From: an uncultured Candidatus Saccharibacteria bacterium
GTDB lineage: Bacteria; Patescibacteriota; Saccharimonadia; Saccharimonadales; UBA4665
NCBI GenBank assembly: GCA_964387505.1
Contig: CAYLWF010000021.1
Location: 12-64,011, forward strand
Direction: 5' to 3'
Length of the DNA: 64,000 nt
Shown here: one piece after another, positions 2,491-61,179 of the stretch
Layout of the letters: every line of letters begins with the position of its first letter
How positions within the stretch are numbered: position 1 is the first letter of the stretch
The notes under the pieces: model-generated
Databases searched by the model: none
Told to the model about the DNA's origin: nothing
What the model saw: only the letters and a program-made list of their open reading frames with translations
Program-made: the position numbers and the translations under genes

Positions 2491-3120
2491 TTAGTGTAAA
2501 ACGTCGATGACGAGGGGGGTGGAAAGGTTCCACTGGGTGTCTATGTAGAGCAGCGGCCGAGAAAGGTGCTTTTTTACTGCAAAGCTAATCTGTCCGCTCG
2601 CAGACTGCCCTGGCCTCAGGTCTGTTGCGCCTAGTGGATTTTTAATATGCGAACTTGCATGCATGGGTGCATAGTCTCCTTCATCACTTCGAACGTACAA
2701 CTGGGTCGAAGGGAATAGCTGTTGTGTTTGCTCTGTTCTGTTTGTGATGGCGATATCCATGATGAGCATTGTTTCGTTTTCAGCCAAGGGAAATGCGTGG
2801 TCAACAGCAGTATTTTCCCCGACATTGCTGACTCGGGCTTGCACGGCAAAGTTACGAGCTGTCTGAAGTGATGTACCGGTTTTTACAGAAACAACGGTGG
2901 CTGTATCTTGTTGGTCTTTTTTGTAACGATGGTTGGTGAACTGTACCCAAAACAATGTATTGACCACAAGGAGCGCAACAATTGCAGCGACAAAAACGCC
3001 CAGAAGCAAACTATTTTCATCACGGAATTTTTCAAACCGCTTGTACTCACGCTTTAGCTCTTTTGCTTGGTCTTCGACAACCTCCTCAAGCTTTTGAATT
3101 GGTGTCTCTCGTTTTTTCAT
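2491..3120 (-). CDS. Membrane-anchored DUF4352-like (Ig-fold) protein
   Basis: 209 aa. The charged N-terminus is followed by one TM helix (LLLGVFVAAIVALLVVNTLFWV). The beta-rich ectodomain has the DUF4352-like pattern (MDIAITNRT...LRPGQSASGQISFAV). It is a paralogue of 5657..6250. Confidence 0.6.
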   Translation of the reverse strand: MKKRETPIQKLEEVVEDQAKELKREYKRFEKFRDENSLLLGVFVAAIVALLVVNTLFWVQFTNHRYKKDQQDTATVVSVKTGTSLQTARNFAVQARVSNVGENTAVDHAFPLAENETMLIMDIAITNRTEQTQQLFPSTQLYVRSDEGDYAPMHASSHIKNPLGATDLRPGQSASGQISFAVKKHLSRPLLYIDTQWNLSTPLVIDVLH

Positions 3121-3153
3121 GTGCGCCTCCTACTCATCTAATTAACTCCTTTG

Positions 3154-5667
3154 TTATGGTTTCGCAGGATCGTAATAACCCAATTGGTATGCATTCATGC
3201 GATAATCAGTGTTTGTCAGAGTTGTTGATTTATGCACTCGGGTTCCCGAGACTCCTGGTATGCTTGAGCCATTTATGTATGCCGCAAAGTTTTTTGCTCC
3301 GCAAAGGGTGCTCACGGCACTCGACCCGGGCAGCAGGTCTACCCCCCTAACGCCGACATGATAGCTTCTGTTGAAGGTGGTTATGTTGTAGACGATCCTA
3401 TTGCTCGAGTCGGTGGTAGAAACGTTATACCCCCAACAATCTGCTGCGGTCGCGTGTGCGCTTAACTGGCTAGGACCGTAACACGGTGTCTTGCCGCCAC
3501 AGTAGACGGCTGCGTTCACGGTCACAGAAACCGTGTTGCTTGCGGTTGTGCCGCCCGCGTTTGTACAAGAAAGGGTAAATGTGTATGTCCCTGCTGTACC
3601 AAGTGTCACTGCCTGAGAGCCACCGCCAGTGGTTTTACTGCCGCTCCATCCGCTGCCGCCTGCTGTGCATGAGGTAGGGCTATTACTGGTCGTCCAGGTG
3701 ACTGTGGTGGTTCCGCCGCTCGTTATAGTGTTGGGCGCTATCGAAAGATTGACTGTAGGTGTTGCGATGGCAGTCACTGTAGTAGATTTTGTGTTGCTTC
3801 CTGCGCTGTTAGAACACAGTAGAGTAAAGGTTTTCGTGCCTGCTGACGTTGCCGTCACAACCTGGCTGCCACTTGCGCTCTTCGCTCCGCTCCAGTCGCC
3901 GCTAGCGGTGCATGAGGTAGGGCTATTCGCGGCGCTCCAACTGACAGTTACCCCACTCCCAACACCAACTGTCGTCGGTGTGGCGGATATGGAAACGACT
4001 GGTGCACTGACAGTGACGCCACTTGTAACGCTTACAGAGGTTTGTCCGGTCCCCGTACCACCGGCATTTGTGCAGTCAAGATAGTAGGTATATGTCTTTA
4101 CTGTCGTGAGAGCTCCAGTTGAAGCTGTTCCACCGGTTGTGAGTTTTGAACCACTCCAGTCGCCACGTGCAGTACATGACGAGGGATTGTTTGTCACTGT
4201 CCAGCTAAGGTTTGAGCTAGCTCCTGCTTTTATCGAGATGGGGTTGGAAGTGAGTGTAACAACGGGCTTTTGTGGATTAGCGACAGTAAGCATGACATTG
4301 TTTGCAGAGCCTGTACCACCGGCATTTGTGCAACTCAGGCTATACGGGTATGTTCCAGCGCTCATGATCCCGGTACTGACGGCGCCGCTGCTCCCACGAG
4401 ATCCATTCCAGCTGCCACTTGCTGTGCAGCTTGTTGGGTTGTTTGTAGCTGACCATGAAATGGTTGCTGATTGACCAGTAAGTATACTAACAGGGTTAAC
4501 CGTAAGTGATACGTTTGGAGCTTTTGGAATAACCTGTACAGTGACTCTGTCGGTCGTACCTCCAGCACTATTTGAGCATACTAGGTTAAATTGATAGGTT
4601 TTTATGCTCGTCATGTTGCTCATTGTTTGCGAACCGGCAGCCGGTCGGCTCCCAGACCAGTCACCACTCGCCGTACAACTCGTTGGACTATTTGTGGCGC
4701 TCCATTTGATGGTGGTTCCACCGCCCGGCTCGATAGGTCCAGCTGGGGTTGCGTCTATGGTAACGAGCGGGACATCTGGTGGTAGCGCCTGAACAGTTAG
4801 AAAGGCGCTCTTTGGGTCGGAAGAGCCACTTCCGTTTCGACAGATAATCGTGTATGTGTATTGTTTTGTAGTGGTCAGTGTTGCGGTACGTTCACTGCCA
4901 GACCCTGCCTTTGTGCCGGTCCAGCTACCGCTTGCCTCGCAAGAAGTCGGATTGTTGGTGGCCTCCCATCTAATTGTACTTGTTGTACCAGCGTAGATGA
5001 GTGCAGGGACAGCTGCGATTGTTACTACAGGCTTGCCCGTGCTGACTGCCGTAGGGCTATTGTTTGTTGTGGCTGTTTGAGTTGTTGAGGAATCGCCGGT
5101 GCTTATATCAGATGGTGTAGTGACACTGACGGGTACAGTTGCGAAACCAGTGCCGGTGTCTGTTTTGCAGGTTAAGGTAAAGAGGTAGTTCTGTAATTTT
5201 GTGAGAGTTTGAGTTGTCTCGTTACCGCCGGCAGTATCTTTGTTCCCACCCCAGTCATCACTTGCCACACAGCTATGAGGGTTATTTGTAACGGTCCACC
5301 GTAGAATTGCTGATTTCCCTTGGACTACGGTTGCCGGCTCTGCAGTAAGCGTAATGACGGGCGCGTCTGTTCCGGTTGTTCCTCCAATTCCAGTTGCAAG
5401 GTCTCCACCCGGAAGTGCAGATGGGTTTTTGCTAATACCAGTCGTTTGTGGAAGATTAGTATCGAGCCCATGTTTCTTACTGAACTCGGCATTATTGCTC
5501 TGTACGGTGAAAATAGCAAAGCTCACCATGCTGAGAATCATGATAGTCGACACAATGAAAATCATTATCTTTGTGCCGCGTGTACCAAATTTTGGCAATC
5601 GATCACGCCATCCACCCATTGGGGTCTGTGGAGTATTAAATTCAACAACGACTGGATTAAATTCCAT
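3154..5667 (-). CDS. Large surface protein: N-terminal TM anchor, 7 Ig-like repeats, C-terminal Cys-rich cytochrome-b5-like domain
   Basis: 837 aa. There are seven ~88-aa repeats, each with W..TNNPTSCTASG.WSG...Y.(F/L).C.N (two conserved Cys). The C-terminal 117 aa (VYCGGKTPCY...DCWGYN...VYNITTF...YH...VHK...LGYY) resemble a cytochrome b5-like fold but lack HPGG. Confidence 0.7.
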   Translation of the reverse strand: MEFNPVVVEFNTPQTPMGGWRDRLPKFGTRGTKIMIFIVSTIMILSMVSFAIFTVQSNNAEFSKKHGLDTNLPQTTGISKNPSALPGGDLATGIGGTTGTDAPVITLTAEPATVVQGKSAILRWTVTNNPHSCVASDDWGGNKDTAGGNETTQTLTKLQNYLFTLTCKTDTGTGFATVPVSVTTPSDISTGDSSTTQTATTNNSPTAVSTGKPVVTIAAVPALIYAGTTSTIRWEATNNPTSCEASGSWTGTKAGSGSERTATLTTTKQYTYTIICRNGSGSSDPKSAFLTVQALPPDVPLVTIDATPAGPIEPGGGTTIKWSATNSPTSCTASGDWSGSRPAAGSQTMSNMTSIKTYQFNLVCSNSAGGTTDRVTVQVIPKAPNVSLTVNPVSILTGQSATISWSATNNPTSCTASGSWNGSRGSSGAVSTGIMSAGTYPYSLSCTNAGGTGSANNVMLTVANPQKPVVTLTSNPISIKAGASSNLSWTVTNNPSSCTARGDWSGSKLTTGGTASTGALTTVKTYTYYLDCTNAGGTGTGQTSVSVTSGVTVSAPVVSISATPTTVGVGSGVTVSWSAANSPTSCTASGDWSGAKSASGSQVVTATSAGTKTFTLLCSNSAGSNTKSTTVTAIATPTVNLSIAPNTITSGGTTTVTWTTSNSPTSCTAGGSGWSGSKTTGGGSQAVTLGTAGTYTFTLSCTNAGGTTASNTVSVTVNAAVYCGGKTPCYGPSQLSAHATAADCWGYNVSTTDSSNRIVYNITTFNRSYHVGVRGVDLLPGSSAVSTLCGAKNFAAYINGSSIPGVSGTRVHKSTTLTNTDYRMNAYQLGYYDPAKP
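3508..5361 (-). repeat. Seven diverged tandem coding repeats (~264 bp each) encoding Ig-like modules
   Basis: The periodicity is seen directly in the translated protein (aa ~103-720 of the 837-aa ORF). The repeats are diverged at DNA level. Confidence 0.8.
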
Positions 5668-6250
5668 GTGTTATGTCTCGCTTATGGTTACGAACTGATT
5701 GTACCATGAATGGTATGATACCGCCGCTCCAACCTGCCTCTACGTAGAATTTATATGAACGTTGCTTTGGTACAAGATAGCTAAGCTCTCCCCGTGTCGA
5801 TTCTCCTGGAAGAATTAGGCCGCTATGAAACGGATTTGCGAGTTCGTACGGCGTAAGGTAACTTACCGTTCCGTCGACTGTTTTTACATATGTATCGGTG
5901 GTCGGAAACACATTGATGGGTTTTTCACTATTGTTTCTAACGTTGACGGTGAGAACAAGGTACTCATAACCGTCGGGTGCGAGAAATGAATGCGCCCCAG
6001 GTTTATACTGAATATTGTTGATTGTCACTGTAGAAACACCACTTGTTATTGGTTTTCCTGCTGCAATACCTGCAAAAGGTATGCGTGTACGCTCTGCGGC
6101 GATTGAGCGAGCCACGACCAGTATGGTCAACGACATAAGAAGTAACGCTATGCTAAAACCAAAGAGCCAACGCTCCCACGCTCGTGCAGGACTGGTTTTT
6201 TCATCTGAGTGTTTTACCTGGGATTGTTTTTTTCTTATCTCTTGATTCAT
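5657..6250 (-). CDS. Membrane-anchored DUF4352-like protein (paralogue of 2491..3120)
   Basis: The track ORF 5657..6298 overlaps the upstream gene by 32 nt. The internal ATG at 6250 (MNQEIRKKQS...) removes this overlap. It has one TM helix and an ectodomain with YLVLTVNVRNNSEKPINV...LPGESTRGELSYLVP. Confidence 0.6.
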   Translation of the reverse strand: MNQEIRKKQSQVKHSDEKTSPARAWERWLFGFSIALLLMSLTILVVARSIAAERTRIPFAGIAAGKPITSGVSTVTINNIQYKPGAHSFLAPDGYEYLVLTVNVRNNSEKPINVFPTTDTYVKTVDGTVSYLTPYELANPFHSGLILPGESTRGELSYLVPKQRSYKFYVEAGWSGGIIPFMVQSVRNHKRDITHGI

Positions 6251-6266
6251 ATTTCTCGATTCTTTT

Positions 6267-7076
6267 CTATGGTTTACTGCTGTCAAAATAGCCCACAAGG
6301 TACGGAATCATATTTCGGTCGGCATTGGCTTTAGTGGTTGCCTTGTGATCTTGTCCAGAGCCGCCAACTGCGACACTTCCCGAGAGTGAAGGCGCCAAGT
6401 CTTTACCGCAAACACCAGATACCTCAATACTTCCCCGTCCAGTTTTACTAAGATGATAGGCGGTATCAAACCCGGTGATGTTGATGACGCGGTCGCCATT
6501 CCATCCCCAGCAATCACCTGATCTTCCGTGAGCTGCGATCTCGCGGGGGCTATAACAAGGAGTTGCCCCCCCGCAATAGACAATGGCCGGTTTCGGTGCT
6601 GTCTGTGTCGGAGTAGTTGTTGTAGTTGGTGTTGTTGGGTTTGCTGTTTGCGCTGGTGCGGGTTTACTTGGAGATGGTGTGGCTATGGCTGGAGCGGGCC
6701 TGACGTTTACAGTTGCGATTGCTGGCTGACTCTTCCCTGCTTTGTTTTCGCACGTTAGAGAGTATGTCTTTGCGCCCTCAGAAGATAGTTTCCCGGTGCT
6801 TTCCCCTCCAAAAGGCGTCTTTTGACCGCCCCAGTCACCGCTTGCAGTGCAACTAGTGATGTTTCCGGTTGTTTCCCATCGAAGGGCGCTAAACATACCT
6901 ACCGTTGTTTCAGTAGGTTCGGCGGTCAACGTGACGGTCGGGGGCATAGCTGTTATCTGGCTTAACCCAAAGTCAGCCCTGCTCTTATCGGGTCCGAAAA
7001 ATCCCGCAAGTACTATAGCATTCATGCCAAGCAGGGTTATTAGCATACAAAGGCCAACGAGCTTTTTTAACCACAT
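6267..7076 (-). CDS. Secreted protein: signal/anchor, one Ig-like repeat, P/T-rich linker, cytochrome-b5-like Cys-rich domain
   Basis: 269 aa. It has the same repeat signature (LRWETTGNITSCTASGDWGG...YSLTCEN). A linker follows (PAPAQTANPTTPTTTTTPTQTAPKP). The C-terminal domain is homologous to that of the 837-aa protein (IVYCGGATPCYSP...GDCWGWNGDRVINITGF...YH...DHK...VGYF). Confidence 0.7.
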   Translation of the reverse strand: MWLKKLVGLCMLITLLGMNAIVLAGFFGPDKSRADFGLSQITAMPPTVTLTAEPTETTVGMFSALRWETTGNITSCTASGDWGGQKTPFGGESTGKLSSEGAKTYSLTCENKAGKSQPAIATVNVRPAPAIATPSPSKPAPAQTANPTTPTTTTTPTQTAPKPAIVYCGGATPCYSPREIAAHGRSGDCWGWNGDRVINITGFDTAYHLSKTGRGSIEVSGVCGKDLAPSLSGSVAVGGSGQDHKATTKANADRNMIPYLVGYFDSSKP

Positions 7077-7297
7077 TGCTGGCTCACTTTCGTTTTTGAA
7101 GGGAAGCTCTTCTCACTTCGGGTGCCCATGTGGCCTTGCTCATGAGTATCCCACGTCCACTCGGCCACTATGTGCGGTCGCCTGAGCTGTGCGCGGGTTT
7201 GCTTCGGAATTGCTGTCTGAAGGAAAGACAACATCAACGTGGTGCTCTGCCCTCTGTCTTCTGCTCTTGTCTCATAACTCATATCTCTTAACTCTCC

Positions 7298-8698
7298 TTA
7301 TGACATGCCGAATTCTTCACTGTGTATACTGGTGGCGGGTATACCTTTGGCGCGAAGCTGTTTGCGTAAACTTTGCATCATAGCTGGCGGCCCACAAAGA
7401 TAAAAATCTTTCCCATGTAAATCACCACTGTATGTTTCGATATAGTTTACGTCGAGATGTCCCGCCTGCCTATCACTGACGTGTGGAATAATACGAACAT
7501 TCTTGCGCGCATGTGCGTGTTCGGCGAGTTTATTTGGGTCGATAAACTCGCTTGCGGTCTTGACGGCATAATATAAATCAACAGAGCAGCCTTCAACCGG
7601 CAAATCTCTCAACATAGACATAAAAGGAGTGATGCCAATTCCGCCCGCAACCCAAATCTGGTTATTGTTACGGTAGTTCGTGTAACTAAAACGGCCATAT
7701 GCACCTTCGACATCGGCTGTTGCGCCCACCTGTAAGTTGACAAGATTGTCCGTATAATCCCCAAGGCCTTTTATGCTCAGCTCTAGTCCGGGATCTCTCG
7801 GGGAAGATGTGATGGAAAATGGGTGCCATTCGCGGCTAATATGCGGGCCGCCTTTCCGAAAACGGACGAACACAAATTGTCCCGGCTTATACTGAATAGG
7901 CGCAGCGAGCGGAGTAAGGAATATTTGTACGACATTCCTGGCCGTAACACGCATAGCGCTAACCTGGTAAGAGTATCTTCGTATAAATATGTTGCTCGCG
8001 AGTGTTTTATATATAAACGCTGCAATTCCTATTGCCACCATTGCAAGCATATAAATTTTCATAGCCATATCATTCGATGTGTCGCTACTAATGAAGAGGA
8101 TATGCAGACCGGCTATAAAGAACGCAACGCCAAGAAACTTATGGGTAAAGAGCCATAGACGATAAGGCAGTTTAATAAAAAACGTTACCAGCAAGAGACC
8201 CACCATCCCCCAGAACGCAATGCTGCCGAACATAGTCGCCCATTGCTGCAGGACAACTTCATGATATTCGTGCTTGGTGTCAAAGAGTGCCCCAAGTGGA
8301 ATGAGTCCATTTGGGACGAGCAGCAGTGCCGCCTGCTTTATGTTGGTTGTTACGAAACGAAGCGCCAAAAACAGCGGGTGGAACGAAAGCATGATGAGGG
8401 CCAGTCCGCCCAACAAATGGTGGGCGATATACACGCGGTTCAGTCCTCCAAACCAGTATTCCAGGAACTTTATACGGGTGGCATATACGAGGTTTAGCGC
8501 GTACATGACCGTTCCAACCAGCCCTGTTACACGACCAAGGTTCAGCATGGTTGGGATGAATCCGTCCACAGTATTCCATGGATGAATGCGCGCCCATAAC
8601 ACAACTGGCACAAGGCAAAGGGCTATGGTTACACCCCAACCAACCATATGTTCGGGGCGGAAACTTAGGACCACTTTTCGAGTGCCGTTTGGCTGCAC
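7298..8698 (-). CDS. NOX/ferric-reductase-like flavocytochrome (ferric reductase TM domain plus FAD/NAD(P)-binding domain)
   Basis: 466 aa with a GTG start. The N-terminal half is polytopic with TM histidines. The C-terminal half has FNR-type motifs: HPFSITS (FAD), GGIGITPF (NAD(P)H) and YLCGPP. Confidence 0.8.
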   Translation of the reverse strand: MQPNGTRKVVLSFRPEHMVGWGVTIALCLVPVVLWARIHPWNTVDGFIPTMLNLGRVTGLVGTVMYALNLVYATRIKFLEYWFGGLNRVYIAHHLLGGLALIMLSFHPLFLALRFVTTNIKQAALLLVPNGLIPLGALFDTKHEYHEVVLQQWATMFGSIAFWGMVGLLLVTFFIKLPYRLWLFTHKFLGVAFFIAGLHILFISSDTSNDMAMKIYMLAMVAIGIAAFIYKTLASNIFIRRYSYQVSAMRVTARNVVQIFLTPLAAPIQYKPGQFVFVRFRKGGPHISREWHPFSITSSPRDPGLELSIKGLGDYTDNLVNLQVGATADVEGAYGRFSYTNYRNNNQIWVAGGIGITPFMSMLRDLPVEGCSVDLYYAVKTASEFIDPNKLAEHAHARKNVRIIPHVSDRQAGHLDVNYIETYSGDLHGKDFYLCGPPAMMQSLRKQLRAKGIPATSIHSEEFGMS

Positions 8699-8794
8699 GT
8701 CGCTACTCCCTCAGGTGCTTATATATTCCTTACGTTTATTGTACACAATACGCACAGTAAACCAATAATATTCCTCCGTTGTATTCTTACGGAC

Positions 8795-8826
8795 TTTTTA
8801 GATTGTCCGGCCGGACAATCTAAAAA
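8795..8826. promoter_or_regulatory. 32-bp perfect palindrome in the divergent promoter region (candidate operator)
   Basis: TTTTTAGATTGTCCGGCCGGACAATCTAAAAA lies between the starts of the two ferric-reductase genes. Its core is repeated at 11884..11907. Confidence 0.55.
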
Positions 8827-8883
8827 GTAGTTTCCTTACCGTAGTGCGTGTTGCTCAGAAATTTTTCAGCCAGGCGGAGCACA

Positions 8884-10188
8884 ATGCTGAGCATGAAAGA
8901 ACATGTAAAACGAAGGGTGCTTGCCTGGTTGATTGTCGTATCTCTGTCTCCTATACCCTTCATGGTCAAGTCGCCAGAGTGGAGTATCGCGCACTCACTC
9001 TGGTTGTATAGTTCGGCTGTGGCGGGCTATACGGGCATTGTCTTGTTGTTATGGATGTATATATTAGGCACAAAGTCGGTGATGGGGCTGTATTTTCGCG
9101 ACTTAGCGCCAGTGCTGAGCATACACAAGTGGCTGGGCAAATACGGCACGCTGCTCATTTTTGTGCATCCGCTGGCAGTGGCTATTTCTTATGGTGTTGA
9201 AATAATCAACTATGTTATCGAGCCAAATGTTGGACTCAGTTTTGAACGAAGTGTCACCTGGGGGCGGTTTGCGCTGTACGCACTGGGACTTGTGTGGCTG
9301 ACATCGGCGCTTGTACGGGGGCGCATTGCGTTTCGGCCATGGAAATATATCCACTACCTTTCATATATTGCCCTGCCCTTGGCGCTTGTGCACATACCAA
9401 GCATCGGTACCTCGTACCGTTCGCTTGACCTGCCACGTGTGTATTTTATGAGTGTGTTATTTTTGCTAGCGCTCTTTAGCGTGCTGCGTCTTAGACACCT
9501 GTTTTCACTTGGACGCGCTCGGTTTACCGTGGTGTGTCATACTGAAATTTCACCTGGGGTGTGGCTGATTGCGCTCAAACCTGGAGGTAGAACAGTACAT
9601 GTGCGCCACGGCCAATACGTCTACTTGCAATGGTCGCTGCTGGGTGAGGAGCATCCGTTTACCCTCTTGCGGCACGATGAACAGACTGGCGAGCTAACTA
9701 TTGCGTACAAAGTACTCGGGGCTTGGACAAAAAAACTCTCAGCGCTGGAGGATGGTTCGACGGTGTATGTCGATGGCCCGTATGGGTCGTTCATGGAAGA
9801 AGCTACTGAAGCCAGCGAGCCGACGGTGTTTATAGCCGCGGGCATAGGTATTACGCCCTTTGTTGAACCTATTTTGCGCAGTGCCGCAGGGCATAACTGG
9901 CTGTTTTATGCGAACCGTACGACCGACTCGGCCGTCTTATCTTGTCAGCTGAAAACCAAGCTCGGCAACCATTATGTTTCTATTCTGAGTCGTGTCGACA
10001 CTTCGTCCTCTCTGTGTGACGAGCGCGGCCACATATGCAGCGAGATGCTTGCGAAATACCTGCCTGAGCCAAGCCGCTACCGCTACTATATCTGCGGTTC
10101 AGAAGCCTTCATGCAAACCGCCACCGCTTCCCTTGCCGCGCTCAAGGTTCCCGCTGCCCACATCCACACCGAAGCCTTCAGTTGGTAG
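8884..10188 (+). CDS. Second ferric-reductase/MsrQ-like TM plus FNR-like oxidoreductase
   Basis: The track ORF starts at GTG 8848. ATG 8884 (MLSMKEHV) follows GGCGGAG and is the more likely start. The TM domain has HKWLGKYG. The C-terminal half has HPFTLL, AAGIGITPF and YICGS. Confidence 0.75.
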   Translation: MLSMKEHVKRRVLAWLIVVSLSPIPFMVKSPEWSIAHSLWLYSSAVAGYTGIVLLLWMYILGTKSVMGLYFRDLAPVLSIHKWLGKYGTLLIFVHPLAVAISYGVEIINYVIEPNVGLSFERSVTWGRFALYALGLVWLTSALVRGRIAFRPWKYIHYLSYIALPLALVHIPSIGTSYRSLDLPRVYFMSVLFLLALFSVLRLRHLFSLGRARFTVVCHTEISPGVWLIALKPGGRTVHVRHGQYVYLQWSLLGEEHPFTLLRHDEQTGELTIAYKVLGAWTKKLSALEDGSTVYVDGPYGSFMEEATEASEPTVFIAAGIGITPFVEPILRSAAGHNWLFYANRTTDSAVLSCQLKTKLGNHYVSILSRVDTSSSLCDERGHICSEMLAKYLPEPSRYRYYICGSEAFMQTATASLAALKVPAAHIHTEAFSW

Positions 10189-10377
10189 GCTTGTAGCAGC
10201 TTCTGTGCCTATCCGTTGTCTGGTAGGGCTTTTGTCGTGGATTTTCGTTCATCTTTACGTGTAACTTTTTCTGCGGCTGGAATGTCGGACAAATGTTTAT
10301 GGCTCCGTCGTAGCTTGTTTTGGTAAAAGCCAGCGTGGTCGCCGCACTATTTTCGAAGTGCCAGTGATAACGGTAGA

Positions 10378-10989
10378 TTATTCATGGCACTGCTTTGTTG
10401 TCAGATTTTCACAAATAGCTTTTACGTAGAGCCGGTCTGCTACGTCGTGTCCTACGCCTGGTATTACGATCAGTTTGTTTTGCGCTAGTGTTTCATGCGC
10501 TAACTCTGCCTGAACTCGCATGATTGGAAATTTCTGAAACTCCTTTTCACCATAAAAGAGCAAGGTGGGACAGTCTATGTCTGCTGCGAGACCGCGAAAT
10601 GAAAGCTTCCGAAATTCATTTGTCCGCCGCAACCCATGATAACGAATCCACGATTTCTTCATGTATGGTGACGAATAATTCTCTGCAAAATACGGTGACA
10701 ATGAGAAGAGCCAGAGCTGCGCCGGGCAATGTTTGGCCGCTGCCATACACGCCGTAATGGCGCCAAACGAAAATCCTGCCAAAATTGTCATGTTTGGGTC
10801 ATGTCTAGCGTATACTTGCATTAGTTGATTTTGCCATTTCTGTGGCGTGGTGCGACTCCATGTTATTGGTACGAATTCGACATTGTAGCTTTTCGATTCA
10901 ATTGTGTTTAGTACTGATCTATAGTCTCTTGAGTTGATGTCTTCACCGCTGCCAGGTACAAAAAGAACAGTGTATTTTATATTTTGCAT
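10378..10989 (-). CDS. Alpha/beta hydrolase family protein
   Basis: 203 aa. It has a GxSxG nucleophile elbow (AGFSFGA) and a C-terminal GVGHD His motif. Confidence 0.6.
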   Translation of the reverse strand: MQNIKYTVLFVPGSGEDINSRDYRSVLNTIESKSYNVEFVPITWSRTTPQKWQNQLMQVYARHDPNMTILAGFSFGAITACMAAAKHCPAQLWLFSLSPYFAENYSSPYMKKSWIRYHGLRRTNEFRKLSFRGLAADIDCPTLLFYGEKEFQKFPIMRVQAELAHETLAQNKLIVIPGVGHDVADRLYVKAICENLTTKQCHE

Positions 10990-11110: not shown

Positions 11111-11458
11111 TCAGGCTAAACACGCGGCCGACATAGTGTTTTGTAGCTTTGGGGCAATATCAGCGGGTTTTGTGAGAAGCTCGGCGGTACCCTCTAGCTG
11201 TAAACCGCGGGGTTTGTCGGCCGGCGTTTGCGGCAGACAGATCGCAGCGGCTACGTGCGGATTTTTCATGACTTCCTCTGAATGTCGCCTCGTTACTGAC
11301 GAAAACCAGTAAATATTAAGGTCTTTGTCGGCTGCAAACCAGACATTGCACGTCCAGGGTCGTCCGTCCCCTCCTACGGTTGCTAAGTGCATCATTTTAG
11401 CTTTCTCCAGGTAGTCAGTAATGAGCTTTTCTAGCCGTTTTTCCTCTGTTACTTGCAC
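11111..11458 (-). CDS. Pyridoxamine 5'-phosphate oxidase-like FMN-binding split-barrel protein
   Basis: 115 aa. The motif MHLATVGGDGRPWTCNVWFAADKDLNIYWFSSVTRRHSEEV is typical of the PNPOx-like family. Confidence 0.6.
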   Translation of the reverse strand: MQVTEEKRLEKLITDYLEKAKMMHLATVGGDGRPWTCNVWFAADKDLNIYWFSSVTRRHSEEVMKNPHVAAAICLPQTPADKPRGLQLEGTAELLTKPADIAPKLQNTMSAACLA

Positions 11459-11495: not shown

Positions 11496-11840
11496 TCATA
11501 GTTTCACTCTTACGAATATAAACTCATTTTCTTGAGTGGTGGGGTTCGAGATTTTGTGGCGCACATTCGCCGGAAAGACGAAGATGTCGCCTGGCTCGTA
11601 TGGGTATTCGCCCTCTTCGTCGTGAACGAACCCTGTGCCTTTGATGCAGACCATTATTTCCTCTACGCCTGGGTGGTCGTGCCAATCATACATGCCACCA
11701 GCCGGCATAAAACCATGCGTCATCATCTCGAACGAGCTACTTTTTAGGTGGTCAGGAGAAGCATAGACTTTTCGTTTACCGCTCCCGCCATGCGCGTCTT
11801 CGAGCTGGATAGTATGTTTACTTCTCTTTATCACTTTCAT
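11496..11840 (-). CDS. Cupin domain protein
   Basis: 114 aa. Cupin motifs are WHDHPGVEEIMVCIKGTG ... GDIFVFPANVRHKISN. Confidence 0.65.
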   Translation of the reverse strand: MKVIKRSKHTIQLEDAHGGSGKRKVYASPDHLKSSSFEMMTHGFMPAGGMYDWHDHPGVEEIMVCIKGTGFVHDEEGEYPYEPGDIFVFPANVRHKISNPTTQENEFIFVRVKL

Positions 11841-11920: not shown

Positions 11921-12757
11921 CTAGGGTGAGAGTTGGTCGTGGCGGAGGAGGATAGTTTTGAGGCTGTACGCGTCGGTTAGTTTTGGTTCGAGATCGGGTG
12001 CTATGAGGAGGATGGTGGCGCAGGTGTCGGCGAGGAGTGCGGTTTCGGCTCGCACGTAGGTGCTGACGATGTCTGACTGGCTAGGTTTGCCAGTGCGCGG
12101 GTCAATGATGTGGTGGTGCGTTTTGCTTCCCTGTTTCCAACTTCGTTTCACGGTTGAGCTGACTGCAAGCGCGCCGCGCTGAATTTTTGTGCTGCCAATG
12201 CTTTTTGTCTGGTCGTACGGGTGTTCGAGTGCGAACTCTAGCGGTTCTGGCGCGTTCACGAATATATCGCCGCCGCCGTTTATGACATAGTAACTCACCC
12301 CTTTGCCTTCCAGCAGTTTGCCAAGTATGTCTATGAGCCAGCCTTTGCCGAACCCGCCAAAGTCGAGGCTTATTTCACTGGGGATGCATATTTCTTCAGG
12401 GGTGAGTTTTACGTCATTCCAAAAATCATGCGAGATTTTTCCCTGCGAGCTTGCCCTGCCATAGCCGAGCTCTTGTAGTTTTCCGCCAACCGAAATATTG
12501 AAGACTCCGTCACTGGCGCGGCACATATCCCTGGCATACTCAAGCATGGTGAGCATGTCAGTTGGCGGGTTTGAGAGGCGCTTGTGTTGGTTGAGCTGAC
12601 CCAGGAGTGAGCTGTCCGAAAAGCGAGTGTATGTTTGCTCAAAATCTTGGACGTAGTTTCGGATTCTTTCTTGCAGTTCGGTACTGAGCGCCTCTTCAAG
12701 TGACTCAATCCACCAGTGTGTTCCGAGGGCGTCAAATTCGAAGATTTGTTTTTTCAT
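11921..12757 (-). CDS. apbE: FAD:protein FMN transferase (ApbE family)
   Basis: 278 aa. It has the ApbE signature SLDFGGFGKGWLID and the overall ApbE length and pattern. Confidence 0.8.
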   Translation of the reverse strand: MKKQIFEFDALGTHWWIESLEEALSTELQERIRNYVQDFEQTYTRFSDSSLLGQLNQHKRLSNPPTDMLTMLEYARDMCRASDGVFNISVGGKLQELGYGRASSQGKISHDFWNDVKLTPEEICIPSEISLDFGGFGKGWLIDILGKLLEGKGVSYYVINGGGDIFVNAPEPLEFALEHPYDQTKSIGSTKIQRGALAVSSTVKRSWKQGSKTHHHIIDPRTGKPSQSDIVSTYVRAETALLADTCATILLIAPDLEPKLTDAYSLKTILLRHDQLSP

Positions 12758-12775: not shown

Positions 12776-13315
12776 TTACGCCTTTGCCTGGTTTGCAATG
12801 GTCGAGAGAGCGTCCTCAAAACCGTAGGTTGTCAGTGAGGCTCCGCCGACACGGCTGAGCGAAATATCGCCAAGCGATTTTCCTACGACCGCCGACTCAA
12901 TACGTGAATCAAATGAGTCTATGTACATACCAGACTCACGGTCGTTGTAGTTGTGAGAGGTTTTTACTGAGCTGACAACACCGTTCTTTACAGTGAGAGA
13001 TACCTGTATGCTGTTATTGCCTCGTGGTACCGAGTAGTTGCCGCTGGCCGAGTAGGTACCGTCTTTATAGCCGCTGGTGTTTGCAGCGGTTGCAGATGCA
13101 TTTGCGTTTGAACTTGTTGTAGCGGGCGTTGTGTTTACTGCGGTTTCTGTGGTTTGGCTGGTCGTTTCTTTGGTAGCTGTTTGACTTGATGCAGTTAATG
13201 CAAGCGACGTGCTAGTCGGGTTGCTTTGGGTGGCGACAAAGAGCGCTGCGCCAACGATGCTGGCGATTGCCAGTGCACCAACGATGACGGGAGTAGAGCT
13301 ATTGGTTGTTTTCAT
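12776..13315 (-). CDS. Membrane-anchored FMN-binding domain protein (likely ApbE substrate)
   Basis: 179 aa. It has an N-terminal TM/signal, an S/T-rich linker and an FMN_bind-like domain. A flavinylation-type motif (LSRVGGASLTT) lies near the C-terminus. Confidence 0.7.
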   Translation of the reverse strand: MKTTNSSTPVIVGALAIASIVGAALFVATQSNPTSTSLALTASSQTATKETTSQTTETAVNTTPATTSSNANASATAANTSGYKDGTYSASGNYSVPRGNNSIQVSLTVKNGVVSSVKTSHNYNDRESGMYIDSFDSRIESAVVGKSLGDISLSRVGGASLTTYGFEDALSTIANQAKA

Positions 13316-14701: not shown

Positions 14702-15538
14702 ATGGACCACCCAATAAACCCTCGCCAACCCATTCGTATCGCCGTTATGGGCCTCAGTGGTGTAGGCAAGACAACCTTAGCGCGATGCTTGCCCGACAGT
14801 CGCTGGTTTCACTACAGTGTCGACTATCGTATATGGACACATTACCTTGGTGACGAGCTGAACGACTACCTGAAACAGCTCGCCATGTCCCATCCGCTCC
14901 TGCGCGACATGCTGAAACGCGATGCCATAACGATCGAACACCGTGTGCATTTTGATAACTTGCTCGCAACGTCACTCTATATGGGCATGCTCGGCAACCC
15001 GAAAAAGCACGGCTCTACCCTGCCCGATTTCACGGCTCGCATGGCGCGGCACGCTGAAAGCGAAATTGCGGCTATGCTCGACTTGCCAAAGTTTATTCAG
15101 CGTGCAGAAGATTTGTACGGCTACCCGAACTTTCTGGCCGATCTTTCCGGTAGCTTGTGTGAAGTCGTGGAGCCAAGTTCAGACAGAGACCCGGTGCTAC
15201 GCATGATGGACGAAACCGTGACGCTTATATACATTCGTGCTACTAAGGCACACGAGAAAGTGCTCATAGAACGCAACATTGCCGACCCGAAACCAATCTA
15301 CTACCGGCCGGATTTTGTTGCCGCGGAGCTGCCTGGGCTGCTCGAAAAATTTCACGCGGCTGATGTGACTGAAATAGACCCGCACAAAGTCGGTGCGTAC
15401 CTATATCCTCGCCTACTTGCGCACCGTGTCGAGCGCTATGAGGCCATTGCCGCCAAACACGCACTGACGCTCACCATGGAAGAGGCGGCTGCTATTCGCA
15501 GTGAAGCAGATTTGCTTGCGCGCTTGGCGCAGAGCTAG
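14702..15538 (+). CDS. P-loop NTPase/kinase-like protein of unknown function
   Basis: 278 aa. Walker A is MGLSGVGKTTLARCL. It starts 12 nt after the thrC stop. Confidence 0.5.
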   Translation: MDHPINPRQPIRIAVMGLSGVGKTTLARCLPDSRWFHYSVDYRIWTHYLGDELNDYLKQLAMSHPLLRDMLKRDAITIEHRVHFDNLLATSLYMGMLGNPKKHGSTLPDFTARMARHAESEIAAMLDLPKFIQRAEDLYGYPNFLADLSGSLCEVVEPSSDRDPVLRMMDETVTLIYIRATKAHEKVLIERNIADPKPIYYRPDFVAAELPGLLEKFHAADVTEIDPHKVGAYLYPRLLAHRVERYEAIAAKHALTLTMEEAAAIRSEADLLARLAQS

Positions 15539-16098
15539 TCTTTTGTTTGGGTTTGCAGGGTGATTTTGTAGATTGAGTAGAGCAAGAGCAGACTGCCAAT
15601 GACGCTAAACGTGGCGCCTATGTTGTGGACTGCAGTGAGCGATGTTGCGCCAAAGGTTGCGAGGAGCGGGCCGAGCAGCGATGTCCCGCAGGCCGCGCAG
15701 CCGCTACTCAGTATGCCAAGCGTGGCAGCAAGTCCGCTGGTACCGGTTGCTCGGGCAGACGCAGTTTTGCGCCGCAGTGAGTACACCAAAACGGCTAGGT
15801 TTATTCCGAACAAAAACGACAATGAGATGACGCTGACAGAGAGAAAACTGTCAAATGAGGTGAAAAGTGCTTCGTAGCCATAGCTAAAAAACCGTAGTTT
15901 TTGTGCCACTGACATGTCGGGATTCGTGATGATATAGCCTACTAGTTCATAGTTGAGTGACCAAATGATGATGGTCAGCATGAGGAACGCGCAGACAAGC
16001 GCAAAAAGCGCATAGAGCGGTTTTTTGAGCACAATTCTGGCAGTGTTTGTCGTAGCGAGCCTCAGCTTTGTTTTGAGCGGTAGCTTGAGGGAACTCAT
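15535..16098 (-). CDS. Polytopic membrane protein with an intramembrane CxxC (GCAACGTSLL). The family is not recognised.
   Basis: 187 aa with ~4-5 predicted TM helices. An ATGA overlap links it to the upstream DsbA-like gene. It is a clear paralogue of 57473..58153. Confidence 0.6.
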   Translation of the reverse strand: MSSLKLPLKTKLRLATTNTARIVLKKPLYALFALVCAFLMLTIIIWSLNYELVGYIITNPDMSVAQKLRFFSYGYEALFTSFDSFLSVSVISLSFLFGINLAVLVYSLRRKTASARATGTSGLAATLGILSSGCAACGTSLLGPLLATFGATSLTAVHNIGATFSVIGSLLLLYSIYKITLQTQTKD

Positions 16099-16793
16099 TG
16101 TACTTGCAGGAGTGCCTTATAGACATTGTATGGCTGCGGGCCGACAATCTTTTGGCCGCCGATGAGGAGTGTGGGTGTGCCCTGCACCGAATCTCCCGCA
16201 GCCTTGTCGACGGCTGCGTTGTACGCGTCTGCGTGCGTGCGGCCGGCTGCGCAGGTTGTGAAAGTCGTCCTATCAAGACCAGCCTCGCCCGCGAGTTCAC
16301 CGAGTTTTTCTGGGCTAAAGAGCTTCTGAGTTGTGGCGTCGAAATTACCCTTGCTGAAGTAGTTGCTCCACATAAAGCTGAACATTTTGTCGTGATAGGC
16401 AGTGAATTTGCTCTGTTCTGCAGCGCAAAACGATGCGTAGAGCGCGAGTCCGGAGTCTTCGCCAAACAGTGGGTATGGGCGGTAAACAATCTTTGCCTTG
16501 CCGGTGTCTACCCATTCGCGCCGAATGTCTTTGCCTGCTTTTTCATGAAACTCGTTACATTTTGGACATTTGTAGTCACCGTATTCGACAATGGTGATTG
16601 GCGCGCTTTCCTTGCCAATAACTAGTTCGGTCGGCATGCTGCTCTGGCTTGTGTCTTTTGCATGCGTCTCATTATCTTTGGCTTGTGTTTGGGCATTTTG
16701 TTTGGGTTTTTCGGTGTCATTTTTGCCAAATACAACAAACAGTCCGCCGCCTATAACGGTAAGTGCGAGAAAGAATATGGCAAATCGTTTCAT
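16095..16793 (-). CDS. DsbA-family thioredoxin-fold thiol:disulfide oxidoreductase (secreted/anchored)
   Basis: 232 aa. It has an N-terminal signal/TM, an active-site motif GDYKCPKCNEFH and a DsbA-like C-terminus (GTPTLLIGG). Confidence 0.8.
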   Translation of the reverse strand: MKRFAIFFLALTVIGGGLFVVFGKNDTEKPKQNAQTQAKDNETHAKDTSQSSMPTELVIGKESAPITIVEYGDYKCPKCNEFHEKAGKDIRREWVDTGKAKIVYRPYPLFGEDSGLALYASFCAAEQSKFTAYHDKMFSFMWSNYFSKGNFDATTQKLFSPEKLGELAGEAGLDRTTFTTCAAGRTHADAYNAAVDKAAGDSVQGTPTLLIGGQKIVGPQPYNVYKALLQVQ

Positions 16794-16869: not shown

Positions 16870-17796
16870 CTAGTCGTTGTCGCTGCCGCCAGAGCCCGAA
16901 CCAGAGCCAGAGCCAGAGCCAGAGCTGCCTGACCCAGAGTCATCAGAGCCTGAACTTCCAGAGTCAGAATTGCTGCTGCCAGAGCCAGATCCGGAATCGT
17001 CACCACTGTCATTTGCGTCGCTGTCTGAGGAAGAGCTGTCGTCGGTTGCGTCGTTGCTGTCGCTCGACTGTGTCCGCGTTTCTTCCGCGCTTCGAACGCG
17101 TACAACGGAGCCGCTCGTGGCATTTACATCCACGCGCCCGCCGTCACTAAACCGTACGCTGTACACGACCACGTTGTTTTCGGTTTCGAGTTCGATTTTG
17201 GTAATTGTTTTGCCGGGTCGCTGGGCTTGAGCGATATCTCGTGCTTGTTGCACGGTAACACTTGCCACAAAGCCTGCTGGGACCGACTCGTCTTGTTCGT
17301 TTTCATCATCGGAAGGTTTCACTACCGCTAGGCCTGTCGTGGCGTTGTAGTAGCGGACAGTACCGTCGCTAAAGCGGACTTTGTAGACAAGCGTACCTTC
17401 CTCTTTTTCAAGCTCTATACCGGTGATTGTGCCGTTTGGTACGTCTTTGAGCGCAGCTTCACGAATGTCTGCTACCCCAAGTACGTTGGCGAGGTCAGTT
17501 GGGAGCGCAACTTTTTTCTCTGAGTTTACGCGCTGACGATTTGCCCCGACAAATGCTGACATGCCGCCCACCACGATGAGCACCGCCAGTACCGCCAGTC
17601 CGGTCGCGGTCGATAGTTGTTTGAAGGCTCCGCGAACAAAACCTATAAAAGATTGTTTCGTCTTCTGTTTTTTAGCCATAGTTTCTCCTTGCGTTACGCT
17701 AAATAATTGTTTTTTTAACTGTTTCTTAAAGTTTGTATCTATACGCAGCTGCCTGCTATCGACGCGGTGTCGCAAGTCTTTTGGCAACTTTGTCAT
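16870..17796 (-). CDS. Membrane protein with two PepSY domains and an acidic S/G/D low-complexity tail. It is a candidate anti-sigma partner.
   Basis: 308 aa. Its start overlaps the stop of the ECF sigma gene by 4 nt. It has one TM helix and two PepSY-like units (GTITGIELEKEEGTLVYKVRFSDG; KTITKIELETENNVVVYSVRFSDG). Confidence 0.65.
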   Translation of the reverse strand: MTKLPKDLRHRVDSRQLRIDTNFKKQLKKQLFSVTQGETMAKKQKTKQSFIGFVRGAFKQLSTATGLAVLAVLIVVGGMSAFVGANRQRVNSEKKVALPTDLANVLGVADIREAALKDVPNGTITGIELEKEEGTLVYKVRFSDGTVRYYNATTGLAVVKPSDDENEQDESVPAGFVASVTVQQARDIAQAQRPGKTITKIELETENNVVVYSVRFSDGGRVDVNATSGSVVRVRSAEETRTQSSDSNDATDDSSSSDSDANDSGDDSGSGSGSSNSDSGSSGSDDSGSGSSGSGSGSGSGSGGSDND

Positions 17797-43600: not shown

Positions 43601-44221
43601 TACTGAGACACAGAGAGATCTGGATGCTTTAGTTTTGGTATACGATCCTTGCTGCTCTGCAAGACGTGCAAGGTGGGGGTAGTCTTGAGCGTAATGATTA
43701 TTGAATGCTGCAGCCGCCTTTCTTTCTCCATGGAGTTTAGTGGGTAGCTGCCATACCGGAAAGTCATCTGGCCTGTACTGGACCTGCTCAGAATCGGACG
43801 CTTTACGAGAGGCACTATCGCGTCTGTACTGTTCTATGCGGGGGGTGTATATGGGCTGTTCTTTTGTGCTGAGTTTCGGGTCAAACACGCTGCTAGTGAG
43901 CCAATCGTGCAACTCGCCGGCTGCAAAACAGTCTCGAAATAGTCCATGAGCAGTCTCATCGGCTGCGAGCTTTTGCAGTTCGCTAAGGATTTGCTGTCTT
44001 TGCTTCACGGCGTCAGGGTCACTACTCGCTTCGTTGAGTATGTAATCTAGTGGATTGAAACCATAAAATGTCTTGGGTTCTCCCATGAGGGCTGGGTTGA
44101 GCGGAAGGCTGCCTTTTTTCAGTGGTCTGCGCAAGGAGCTTGGATCTATACTATTCGCAATAAGCGGCGCCGGATTGCAAAAAACAGCACCAAGGACTCC
44201 TTGCTCTACAACAGAATTCAT
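40667..44221 (-). CDS. Tandem MutS-type (domain V-like) ABC ATPase protein. No mismatch-binding or nuclease domain was recognised.
   Basis: 1184 aa. Half 1 has VIITGSPGSGKT, LYIGDEPFSGTDPDE and LVTTHDD. Half 2 has VLSGANMSGKTTLLRTL, LVVVDEPFS and VLATHHHG. Confidence 0.6.
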   Translation of the reverse strand: MNSVVEQGVLGAVFCNPAPLIANSIDPSSLRRPLKKGSLPLNPALMGEPKTFYGFNPLDYILNEASSDPDAVKQRQQILSELQKLAADETAHGLFRDCFAAGELHDWLTSSVFDPKLSTKEQPIYTPRIEQYRRDSASRKASDSEQVQYRPDDFPVWQLPTKLHGERKAAAAFNNHYAQDYPHLARLAEQQGSYTKTKASRSLCVSVYIQNSGKELNSAQQRVLDDSAKMYRHTTNTLALASFVSTLPAKPAHVSGAREITLDNFFHPRFNPAAQSRHSITISDRPVIITGSPGSGKTFATEAIAAAIRNGLSTGHVAAESAVVPPVRLLQEVARPESGGELSAFGEEVVKLGKLVTTVETLLAQNPDAITLYIGDEPFSGTDPDERQELLIRYLDGLRRLGIMALVTTHDDMSAPVEAGAVVAYRASKDKGEHLLEPGIAHSDAFTEARNCQFAEEVLARAEAIAKGAPLDLTETETRQLNPEDPIAWFKSQGGPAGFMWFGNTKPACPSQMDDDYNYTRITKARDGTVPKAAPMYNAALILGSDSIFNHYEYPLSVLHTLLQEGSTSSIDVLRARQDFFVRITEYGQKDDLRTDLDDFRRLVFALSRDRYRFGEDPLEPELYNPLANVAQTFTTLLKKIEVEIDPYHSMTEEEFSHLLDTKDAYALQLLRTIQAMLNPTDEKPQTFIADYISLLEEIQNMYRPLKAWLEYSTSDNAYEKRVAHRQPVDIELRDKLYAFGKAHFKKDGWSQKNFLEKLDDIFYPTSYDPENNELIRHESTQLTYTSIYRLHDLFMPHHKGVPEKLQKIIKKSGLQLNGLPNFVSEIDALYRAAVTVEQAGGKTPVVRTLSILRFVADDHKPIDAIITHLEAIDGTIAQDLAHYYDTNTRLFFASKASGSLYGKWVSQQLQTQEDYPNLPIGNVSRNRWDFAGKLPVTPYSEAILLMRLLDIATFMKEHAYAPWEEADYTTITQTRNVSHRNHTANNVTYQQGGIDVLSGANMSGKTTLLRTLFANHALIQATGFSPSSSMSSPLYQHIIFADRPKHDTSKGLGSFGMEMEYWKTITEKLRYAAPSLVVVDEPFSTIPSYYQEAFLLASLEWLAKRGHRVVLATHHHGAVKRLEEAKNDARTTVEISFRHFKTEKNEKREVRFTHQLADGVAPSDAMTVAKQFGGPALAKVLGI

Positions 44222-61175: not shown

Positions 61176-61179
61176 TCCT

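Follow-up and report, generated by a model that had tools for sequence, protein, structure and literature searches.

A conserved operon pairing a NOX-type reductase with putative surface cytochrome b5 and DUF4352 proteins in Candidatus Saccharibacteria

SpNOX of Streptococcus pneumoniae (PDB 8qt6 and 8qq7) is the closest solved relative of FRE1, a predicted reductase encoded in a 64,000-nucleotide stretch of DNA from an uncultured Candidatus Saccharibacteria bacterium (assembly GCA_964387505.1, contig CAYLWF010000021.1, positions 12 to 64,011 of the forward strand). This whole stretch is referred to here as the window. FRE1 is the first gene of a five-gene operon which also encodes two proteins ending in a cytochrome b5-like domain (b5S and b5L) and two DUF4352 proteins (DUFb and DUFa). 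SpNOX and FRE1 are both single chains with a six-transmembrane di-heme domain, a flavin adenine dinucleotide (FAD) domain and an NAD(P)H domain. SpNOX has 399 amino acids and FRE1 466, making FRE1 approximately 65 amino acids longer. SpNOX reduces cytochrome c directly under anaerobic conditions, its outer heme is unusually exposed and it has no validated O2-reduction centre (10.1101/2023.10.17.562464). Its authors suggested that the enzyme perhaps reduces something other than O2 in vivo, and they raised the possibility of "a potential protein acceptor" (10.1101/2023.10.17.562464). The FRE1 operon differs from SpNOX in co-encoding the two b5 and two DUF4352 proteins. We know of no partner protein for SpNOX. 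The role and acceptor of bacterial NOX homologues are open questions, and the operon names concrete co-encoded acceptor candidates for them.

Several other systems share part of this arrangement. MsrQ-MsrP and the MsrQ-like systems (PMC8238504) follow a similar logic, with an FRD-family membrane protein passing electrons to a dedicated extracytoplasmic carrier encoded nearby. The carriers in these systems are flavin mononucleotide (FMN)-binding proteins flavinylated by ApbE, or molybdoenzymes, whereas the carrier predicted for the b5 operon is a heme b5 domain and ApbE lies outside the conserved core. Cytochrome b558 of Ectothiorhodospira vacuolata (1cxy), the top structural match, is a soluble bacterial b5 and a free-standing small protein. 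Unlike b558, the domain in the window always forms the C-terminus of an anchored multidomain protein, carries an extra N-terminal Cys pair (YCGGxTPCY) and finishes in an invariant ...YDxxKP, and in this genome it has no HPGG. The eukaryotic CYBDOM proteins act as ferric reductases (PMC10784552). In them a trans-membrane di-heme b cytochrome passes electrons to an extracellular b-heme domain and on to external Fe(III). This is an analogy only, as the folds are unrelated (b561 and DOMON compared to FRD and b5), the donor is ascorbate rather than NAD(P)H, and the domains are fused rather than encoded in an operon. The Listeria FLEET system (Ndh2, EetA/B, PplA and FmnB) likewise exports electrons in a cell with no outer membrane to a surface-tethered carrier. 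It uses a quinone-dependent NDH-2 and the flavinylated lipoprotein PplA, contains no b5, FRD or DUF4352 protein, and is not homologous to the b5 operon.

No description of the combination of NOX-type reductase, surface b5 and DUF4352 proteins, or of the C-terminal disulfide-rich b5 subfamily, was found in the literature searched. Every part of the operon belongs to a known family. Their combination and the b5 subfamily are not categorically new, but they are surprising for the biology of the candidate phyla radiation (CPR). Saccharibacteria and other CPR bacteria are regarded as non-respiring fermenters and are thought to be without electron-transport chains. If these episymbionts do have a conserved redox apparatus at the surface, the way in which their redox balance, iron acquisition or host interaction is viewed would change.

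Gene organization and conservation of the operon

The window has a G+C content of approximately 50% and its relatives were all Candidatus Saccharibacteria or Saccharimonadales genomes. The open reading frame (ORF) list placed six genes between 2491 and 10188. Five of them lie on the minus strand and are read in the order FRE1, b5S, DUFb, b5L and DUFa, and the sixth, FRE2, is divergent on the plus strand.

7298-8698, minus strand: FRE1, 466 amino acids, six-transmembrane ferric-reductase/NOX-type flavocytochrome, first gene of the operon
6267-7076, minus strand: b5S, 269 amino acids, short b5-domain protein with a signal peptide or anchor (amino acids 6-24), one immunoglobulin (Ig)/PKD-like repeat (amino acids ~45-128, nucleotides 6693-6944), a Pro/Thr-rich linker and a C-terminal cytochrome-b5-like domain (amino acids 161-269, nucleotides 6270-6596)
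5657-6298, minus strand: DUFb, 213 amino acids, N-terminally membrane-anchored DUF4352 beta-sandwich protein paired with b5S
3154-5667, minus strand: b5L, 837 amino acids, with a conserved cytoplasmic tail, a signal-anchor transmembrane segment (amino acids 34-52, nucleotides 5512-5568), seven Ig/PKD-like repeats with two Cys each (amino acids ~102-720, nucleotides 3508-5364) and a C-terminal b5-like domain (amino acids 718-837, nucleotides 3157-3516)
2491-3120, minus strand: DUFa, 209 amino acids, N-terminally membrane-anchored DUF4352 protein paired with b5L
8848-10188, plus strand: FRE2, 446 amino acids, paralogous FRD/FAD/NAD flavocytochrome

The three pairs of like genes are paralogues by BLASTP: b5S and b5L (E 1e-30, the C-terminal domain included), DUFa and DUFb (E 6e-11), and FRE1 and FRE2 (E 2e-23, 23% identity). 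FRE1 and b5S are separated by a 221-nt spacer and all later junctions overlap or have gaps of 33 nt or less. The b5S and DUFb genes overlap by 32 nt if DUFb starts at TTG, or are 16 nt apart if it starts at the ATG at 6250, which is likely the true start. DUFb and b5L overlap by 11 nt, and 33 nt separate b5L from DUFa. A preceding interpretation made from the letters and ORFs of the window (the sequence-only reading) had described two tandem modules, each an Ig/b5-like gene followed by a DUF4352 gene, with tiny gaps or overlaps and two adjacent ferric-reductase/NOX genes carrying HPF(S/T) and GIGITPF motifs. All of this was borne out by the ORF coordinates, the BLASTP alignments, the junctions and the presence of both motifs in FRE1 and FRE2. 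An RNA element was sought in the 221-nt spacer by folding and none was seen (z = -0.03). There were no Rfam matches and no tRNAs anywhere in the window, and promoter and terminator scans gave nothing above shuffled expectation.

All three Pfam domains expected of a NOX-type reductase were found in FRE1 above their cut-offs (PF01794 Ferric_reduct 37.6 bits, PF08022 FAD_binding_8 47.3 bits and PF00175 NAD_binding_1 47.3 bits). Its best PDB relative was SpNOX (8qt6, E 9e-36). The candidate heme-ligand His residues are H93/H107 and H186/H199 in two transmembrane helices, with a spacing of 14 and 13. The SpNOX ligands are H69/H83 and H129/H142, giving the same spacing (10.1101/2023.10.17.562464). 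HPFS (FAD) and GIGITPF (NAD(P)H) motifs are also present. By its sequence FRE1 is a complete NOX/FRE catalytic core. Given its four transmembrane His residues at the SpNOX spacing and its motifs for both FAD and NAD(P)H, it is expected to move electrons from NAD(P)H in the cytoplasm to an outer heme.

The conservation of the operon was examined by a locus search with a back-translated pattern and one genome per species, which gave 20 loci, all from Saccharibacteria/Patescibacteria. The pattern came from a narrower alignment (A3) and detects only members with YCGGxTPCY, so these 20 genome loci are biased to Saccharibacteria. The proteins of the window were then mapped onto the genome loci and onto metagenomic contigs (numbered with the prefix L where needed), and 25 contexts were evaluable for the reductase link. 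An FRE1 orthologue lay directly upstream of b5 on the same strand in all 19 species-representative genome loci with enough upstream DNA. An FRE1 orthologue was in or adjoining the b5-DUF4352 cluster in 23 of the 25 evaluable contexts, the two exceptions being L001 and L006, which are described below. The sequence-only reading had associated both reductase genes with the surface module. The association is conserved for FRE1; FRE2 is not a conserved partner and belongs to a separate module.

The full order FRE1-b5S-DUFb-b5L-DUFa was found in approximately 15 Saccharimonadia genomes, in which b5L was always 810-862 amino acids long. Across intact loci b5L ranged from 810 to 875 amino acids. The pairing of a one-repeat with a seven-repeat protein is an old arrangement of conserved length, and it did not arise by recent local expansion. 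A DUF4352 gene followed every b5 gene or b5 pair, with DUFb after b5S in all five-gene operons and DUFa after b5L in all loci. Smaller and rearranged versions were also present. L003-5 have the order FRE-b5-DUF4352 with a b5 protein of 154 amino acids, a 4-bp FRE/b5 overlap and a b5 domain of 28% identity. The same order with b5 proteins of 371-477 amino acids was found in L010, L024 and L026. L033 has the order FRE-b5-b5-DUF4352, and in L035 FRE-b5S-DUF4352 is convergent with b5L (875 amino acids)-DUF4352.

Two loci showed operon decay. In L002 (contig_19427, 8446-10627) frameshifts split FRE1 into 408 and 60 amino acids and b5S into 45 and 208 amino acids. This decay and that of L001, which is described below, could be real pseudogenes or long-read assembly errors.

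The C-terminal b5 domain and its partner proteins

The C-terminal domain of b5S matched Pfam Cyt-b5 (PF00173) below threshold (E 0.073, 13.5 bits compared to a cut-off of 23.7) and that of b5L gave no Pfam Cyt-b5 match. A direct search of the PDB with the domain sequence gave chance matches only. A word-indexed homologue search found one relative with the domain and 24 with a profile query, and an exhaustive HMMER search of 1.84e9 representative proteins with a three-sequence profile found 121. The domain, of approximately 105 amino acids, was at the extreme C-terminus in all relatives, ending GYYDxxKP. Weaker relatives included proteins built of tandem canonical b5 domains.

A 37-sequence alignment of the domain (A2) was used to identify conserved residues. 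Its invariant columns were exactly four Cys, two His and one Asp. The two His were H48 and H84 (37/37). The His of the "AAH" motif, H23, was not invariant and is not a candidate heme ligand. Many relatives have HPGG, HPNG or HSGG at the first His, and the window genome has YH(L/V). Individually, 23 of the 37 family members matched Pfam Cyt-b5 (E <= 0.01, best 2.3e-10). When the A2 profile was compared to the PDB, the best matches (approximately 50) were essentially all cytochrome b5 domains, led by 4b8n (E 1.8e-6), with flavocytochrome b2 at 1.9e-6 and 1cxy at 1.9e-5. H48 aligned to the HPGG His of b5 and H84 to the region of the second ligand. An AlphaFold2 model of the domain had a predicted local distance difference test score (pLDDT) of 83.9 and a predicted template-modelling score (pTM) of 0.77. 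The top 50 Foldseek matches to this model were all b5 domains, with a probability of ~1.0 and template-modelling (TM) scores on the target of 0.6-0.72. The best of them was 1cxy (bacterial b558, E 1.6e-3, TM-score 0.68 on the target).

By homology, modelled fold and ligand residues the C-terminal domain is a divergent cytochrome b5 domain, one which falls below the Pfam threshold. The sequence-only reading had expected a b5-like fold, and this was upheld by the PDB profile matches, the Foldseek result and the position of the invariant His on the axial His of b5. Its account of four Cys and two His without HPGG was also correct for this genome, the third His (H23) being the one not invariant. 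The proteins of the window have no domain family assignment for this region in Pfam or NCBIfam, and public records annotate their close relatives as "hypothetical protein". The result is a recognisable unannotated family of predicted extracytoplasmic, disulfide-bonded C-terminal b5 domains with an obligate DUF4352 partner. The C-terminal signature YCGGxTPCY...CWGYN...H...CG.D...H...GYYDxxKP can be used for its annotation.

The end of the family is fixed. It is always ...G(Y/F)(Y/F)DxxKP followed by the stop codon (window 3157-3180 and 6270-6293), in which the Asp is invariant and the Lys-Pro nearly so. This pattern suggests a docking or processing signal. In L033 (5648-6280) two dockerin-like Ca-binding repeats (faint Pfam Dockerin_1 matches) replace the Ig-like repeat upstream of the b5 domain, suggesting that the domain can be mounted on different tethers.

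A different b5 cluster was seen in L030-L032, Joint Genome Institute (JGI) metagenome contigs of 67% G+C. It consists of four genes (for example L030 5512-10523) encoding little other than secreted canonical b5 domains: four b5 domains (368 amino acids), a DUF2231 membrane domain with two b5 domains (385 amino acids), seven b5 domains (673 amino acids) and one b5 domain (116 amino acids). No FRE gene is in the cluster and the CW...CG Cys pair is kept in each domain. The cluster may encode a "wire" built of b5 domains in a bacterium of high G+C content. No description of a cluster of this type was found in the literature, with DUF2231 among the topics searched.

The repeats upstream of the b5 domain are approximately 84 amino acids long, with seven in b5L and one in b5S. 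Across them 13 columns are invariant, two of which are Cys. All matches of the repeat family to known domains were below threshold (K319L-like PKD 0.002, InlK_D3 3.7e-5 for one repeat, and KIAA0319L PKD in the PDB 0.0039). The sequence-only reading had described an 837-amino-acid protein with seven Ig domains and a 269-amino-acid protein with one. The repeat numbers stand as aligned, and with these weak PKD/Ig matches the repeats may be Ig-like.

One N-terminal hydrophobic segment was found in each of b5S, DUFb, b5L and DUFa. That of b5S resembles a signal peptide. In the other three the segment follows a predicted cytoplasmic tail of 30-45 amino acids and is signal-anchor-like. We infer that the b5 and DUF4352 proteins are extracytoplasmic. 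Such a location fits the Cys content of the b5 proteins, with four invariant Cys in the domain and two in every repeat, and a nearby gene for a DsbA-like protein. The DsbA-like thioredoxin (16095-16793) is approximately 6 kb from the operon and overlaps by 4 bp with a gene for a 187-amino-acid multi-transmembrane protein (15535-16098) which has a GCAACG motif and no Pfam match. The two may be a disulfide-forming pair for Cys-rich surface proteins. A gene for a PepSY-domain protein (16870-17796) adjoins this pair and in related contigs follows a gene for an extracytoplasmic function (ECF) sigma factor.

DUFa and DUFb both matched Pfam DUF4352 (PF11611) above the cut-off of 25.9 bits (E 4e-7, 30.8 bits and E 1.4e-13, 51.7 bits, respectively). 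Their transmembrane segments are at amino acids 38-56 in DUFa and 45-63 in DUFb, and the N-terminus of DUFa is charged, conserved and predicted to be cytoplasmic. No His, Cys or Met was conserved across 41 DUF4352 orthologues. A cofactor-binding role was rejected on this ground and a docking or scaffolding role was assigned instead, in which the DUF4352 partners probably position the b5 protein at the reductase. The DUF4352 literature includes the mycobacterial phage-resistance protein Mpr, which has no obvious bearing on this operon. The operon gives DUF4352 a testable context.

Proposed electron export and alternative explanations

In this CPR bacterium, which has a cell wall, the operon probably encodes a chain dedicated to moving electrons outward. 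FRE1, as a SpNOX-type enzyme, would accept electrons from NAD(P)H in the cytoplasm and conduct them by way of FAD and two stacked b hemes to the outer side of the membrane. The acceptor there would be a protein rather than, or besides, O2, namely the bis-His heme of the disulfide-stabilised b5 domain on b5S. With one Ig-like domain and a Pro/Thr linker, b5S would sit close to the membrane. The same domain on b5L, carried by a stalk of seven Ig-like repeats (~25-30 nm), would bring the electron across the cell wall or past it, to an oxidant outside. The contrast between one repeat with a linker in b5S and the length-conserved seven repeats in b5L suggests a membrane-proximal and a distal station. 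Each b5 protein would be made with its own membrane-anchored DUF4352 partner for docking at the reductase. The terminal acceptors could be Fe(III) or other extracellular oxidants, serving reductive iron uptake or the disposal of reducing equivalents. Fe(III) reduction or such disposal is the most economical guess and is held with much less confidence than the chain itself.

The hemes of NOX enzymes have midpoint potentials much lower than those of b5, so that transfer from FRE1 to b5 would be downhill. An extracytoplasmic b5 translated together with a SpNOX-type enzyme is a natural candidate for its protein acceptor. A wider proposal can be put forward more tentatively, at somewhat short of an even chance. 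It states that a heme-b extracellular electron conduit exists in Saccharibacteria, and probably in other CPR bacteria, in which surface b5 proteins are the natural acceptors of a NOX-type reductase and one of them stands on a stalk of ~25-30 nm. If true, reducing equivalents would get to the outside of the cell wall, to a mineral or to the surface of the host cell. It would also be the first physiological protein acceptor identified for a bacterial NOX homologue, and the first extracellular electron transfer system based on b5 rather than on multiheme c cytochromes or flavins.

A number of points weigh against electron export. The binding of heme by the b5 domain is a prediction, with HPGG replaced by YH(L/V) in this genome and the Pfam match below threshold. 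The matches of the b5L stalk to PKD/Ig families are weak, and b5S is placed before b5L purely by inference. The operon has no gene for a terminal acceptor, a metal transporter or a substrate of the reductase. Saccharibacteria are generally considered incapable of heme synthesis, and if so the supply of cofactor would depend on the host. No FRE gene is upstream in L006. In L001 (9850-10273), a complete genome (CP064993.1), a deletion has taken out the DNA that separated thrC from the final 90 codons of b5S. FRE1 is gone and b5S is truncated to 90 amino acids, with DUFb, b5L and DUFa intact, and b5L may thus not be strictly dependent on FRE1.

The most serious rival, though unlikely, is heme capture. 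The surface b5-like domains would then be hemophore-like receptors with a role like that of the NEAT-domain Isd proteins, acquiring heme from a host or from the surroundings. On its stalk b5L would capture the heme and b5S would relay it inward, with FRE1 reducing heme iron or Fe(III) for release and uptake. A heme-binding fold with invariant His ligands, displayed at two distances from the membrane, would suit this role, as would the persistence of b5L without FRE1 in L001. Saccharibacteria are also expected to be heme auxotrophs, yet they encode the heme proteins FRE1 and FRE2. However, no ATP-binding cassette (ABC), energy-coupling factor (ECF) or other transporter was found in any of ~27 contexts, and a six-coordinate b5 site with two His ligands is usual for an electron carrier and not for a site of heme exchange. 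A redox partnership accounts better for the close translational coupling to a reductase driven by NAD(P)H.

The sequence-only reading had left a choice between an electron-transfer apparatus and one generating reactive oxygen species. The results support the former, and superoxide production is the less likely option. It is quite unlikely that FRE1 is a true NADPH oxidase making surface superoxide for attack on the host or for signalling, with the b5 and DUF4352 proteins regulating, scavenging or re-routing. The closest solved relative, SpNOX, does consume O2 in vitro, but its authors doubt that O2 is the acceptor in vivo and could identify no functional centre for its reduction (10.1101/2023.10.17.562464). 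Reduction of O2 at the outer heme also needs no two conserved dedicated heme carriers. Very unlikely is an adhesin or cell-envelope module with no redox role, in which the b5-like fold would bind a ligand without heme, as in the MAPR/steroid-binding proteins, and the reductase would be a mere neighbour. A repeat stalk and a DUF4352 beta-sandwich are typical of Gram-positive surface proteins, and both the sub-threshold Pfam Cyt-b5 match and the loss of HPGG in this genome would fit such a module. Heme-free b5-like proteins are without the axial His, whereas both are invariant here across 37 divergent members. The reductase link also persists down to 28% domain identity, including a 4-bp gene overlap.

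The FRE2 module and other genes of the window

FRE2 was found in the window, in the near-identical copies L027 and L028, and otherwise in L008 and L011 only. Its Pfam domains were all above the cut-offs (PF01794 43.0 bits, PF08022 25.2 bits and PF00175 34.7 bits), its best PDB match was SpNOX (E 3e-9), and its candidate heme-ligand His residues are H93/H107 and H169/H182. It carries HPF(S/T) and GIGITPF motifs, as noted above. Further features of this region are as follows.

8793-8828, no strand: palindrome, 36 nt, perfect, in the divergent FRE1-FRE2 region
11921-12757, minus strand: ApbE, FAD:protein FMN transferase (Pfam ApbE E 2e-39), accessory module
12776-13315, minus strand: P179, 179 amino acids, membrane-anchored and FMN-binding-domain-like, accessory module

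ApbE and P179 accompany FRE2 in the window and in L008, and all three are absent from the otherwise collinear L007. FRE2 and ApbE are absent from most loci. ApbE is 1.7 kb from FRE2 in the window and directly abuts it in L008. Between the two in the window are an alpha/beta-hydrolase-like gene (10378-10989), a PNPOx gene (11111-11458) and a cupin gene (11496-11840). P179 had no Pfam match. A profile of its family weakly matched the FMN-binding domain 8p2a in the PDB (E 0.005). In that alignment GGAS, part of "VGGASLTT" in the P179 sequence, falls on SGAT, the flavinylation motif. The domain was modelled with a pLDDT of ~90, and Foldseek matched it to 3o6u and 8p2a (TM-score 0.74 for 8p2a). P179 homologues are labelled "protein with FMN-binding domain" by JGI. 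From sequence and model, P179 is likely the substrate of ApbE and the partner of FRE2.

MsrQ-like flavinylation clusters contain a PF01794 gene, usually with an NAD-binding domain, together with apbE and a gene for an FMN-binding protein (Meheust et al. 2021, eLife, PMC8238504). FRE2-ApbE-P179, in which a PF01794 gene is clustered with apbE, fits these systems. The possibility that both reductases serve the b5 module was rejected, as most loci lack FRE2 and its occurrence varies with that of ApbE and P179. The FRE2 module may be a second, optional route of electron export, separate from the b5 operon and using a covalently flavinylated acceptor. The window would then contain a pair of neighbouring paralogous exporters, of which one has heme (b5) acceptors and the other a flavin acceptor.

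The palindrome lies in the 149-nt region between FRE1 and FRE2 and has the arms ACTTTTTAGATTGTCCGG and CCGGACAATCTAAAAAGT, with the FRE2 start 20 nt downstream. At the equivalent position L008 has a different sequence which is also a perfect palindrome (TAAATCGTACGG and CCGTACGATTTA), indicating that the symmetry is maintained although both arms have changed. The palindrome may serve as an operator or form a hairpin in the 5' untranslated region.

Elsewhere in the window, a stretch of low G+C (0.41-0.44 at 58-62 kb) contains a gene for a 945-amino-acid fusion of a poly(A) polymerase/CCA-adding head and Schlafen AlbA_2, beside a RhuM-family gene. A Fic/DOC protein and a 1184-amino-acid P-loop/MutS-domain-V protein are also encoded. 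Together these genes occupy 40667-44221, 48922-50070 and 58338-62265, and they may be mobile or defence-related.

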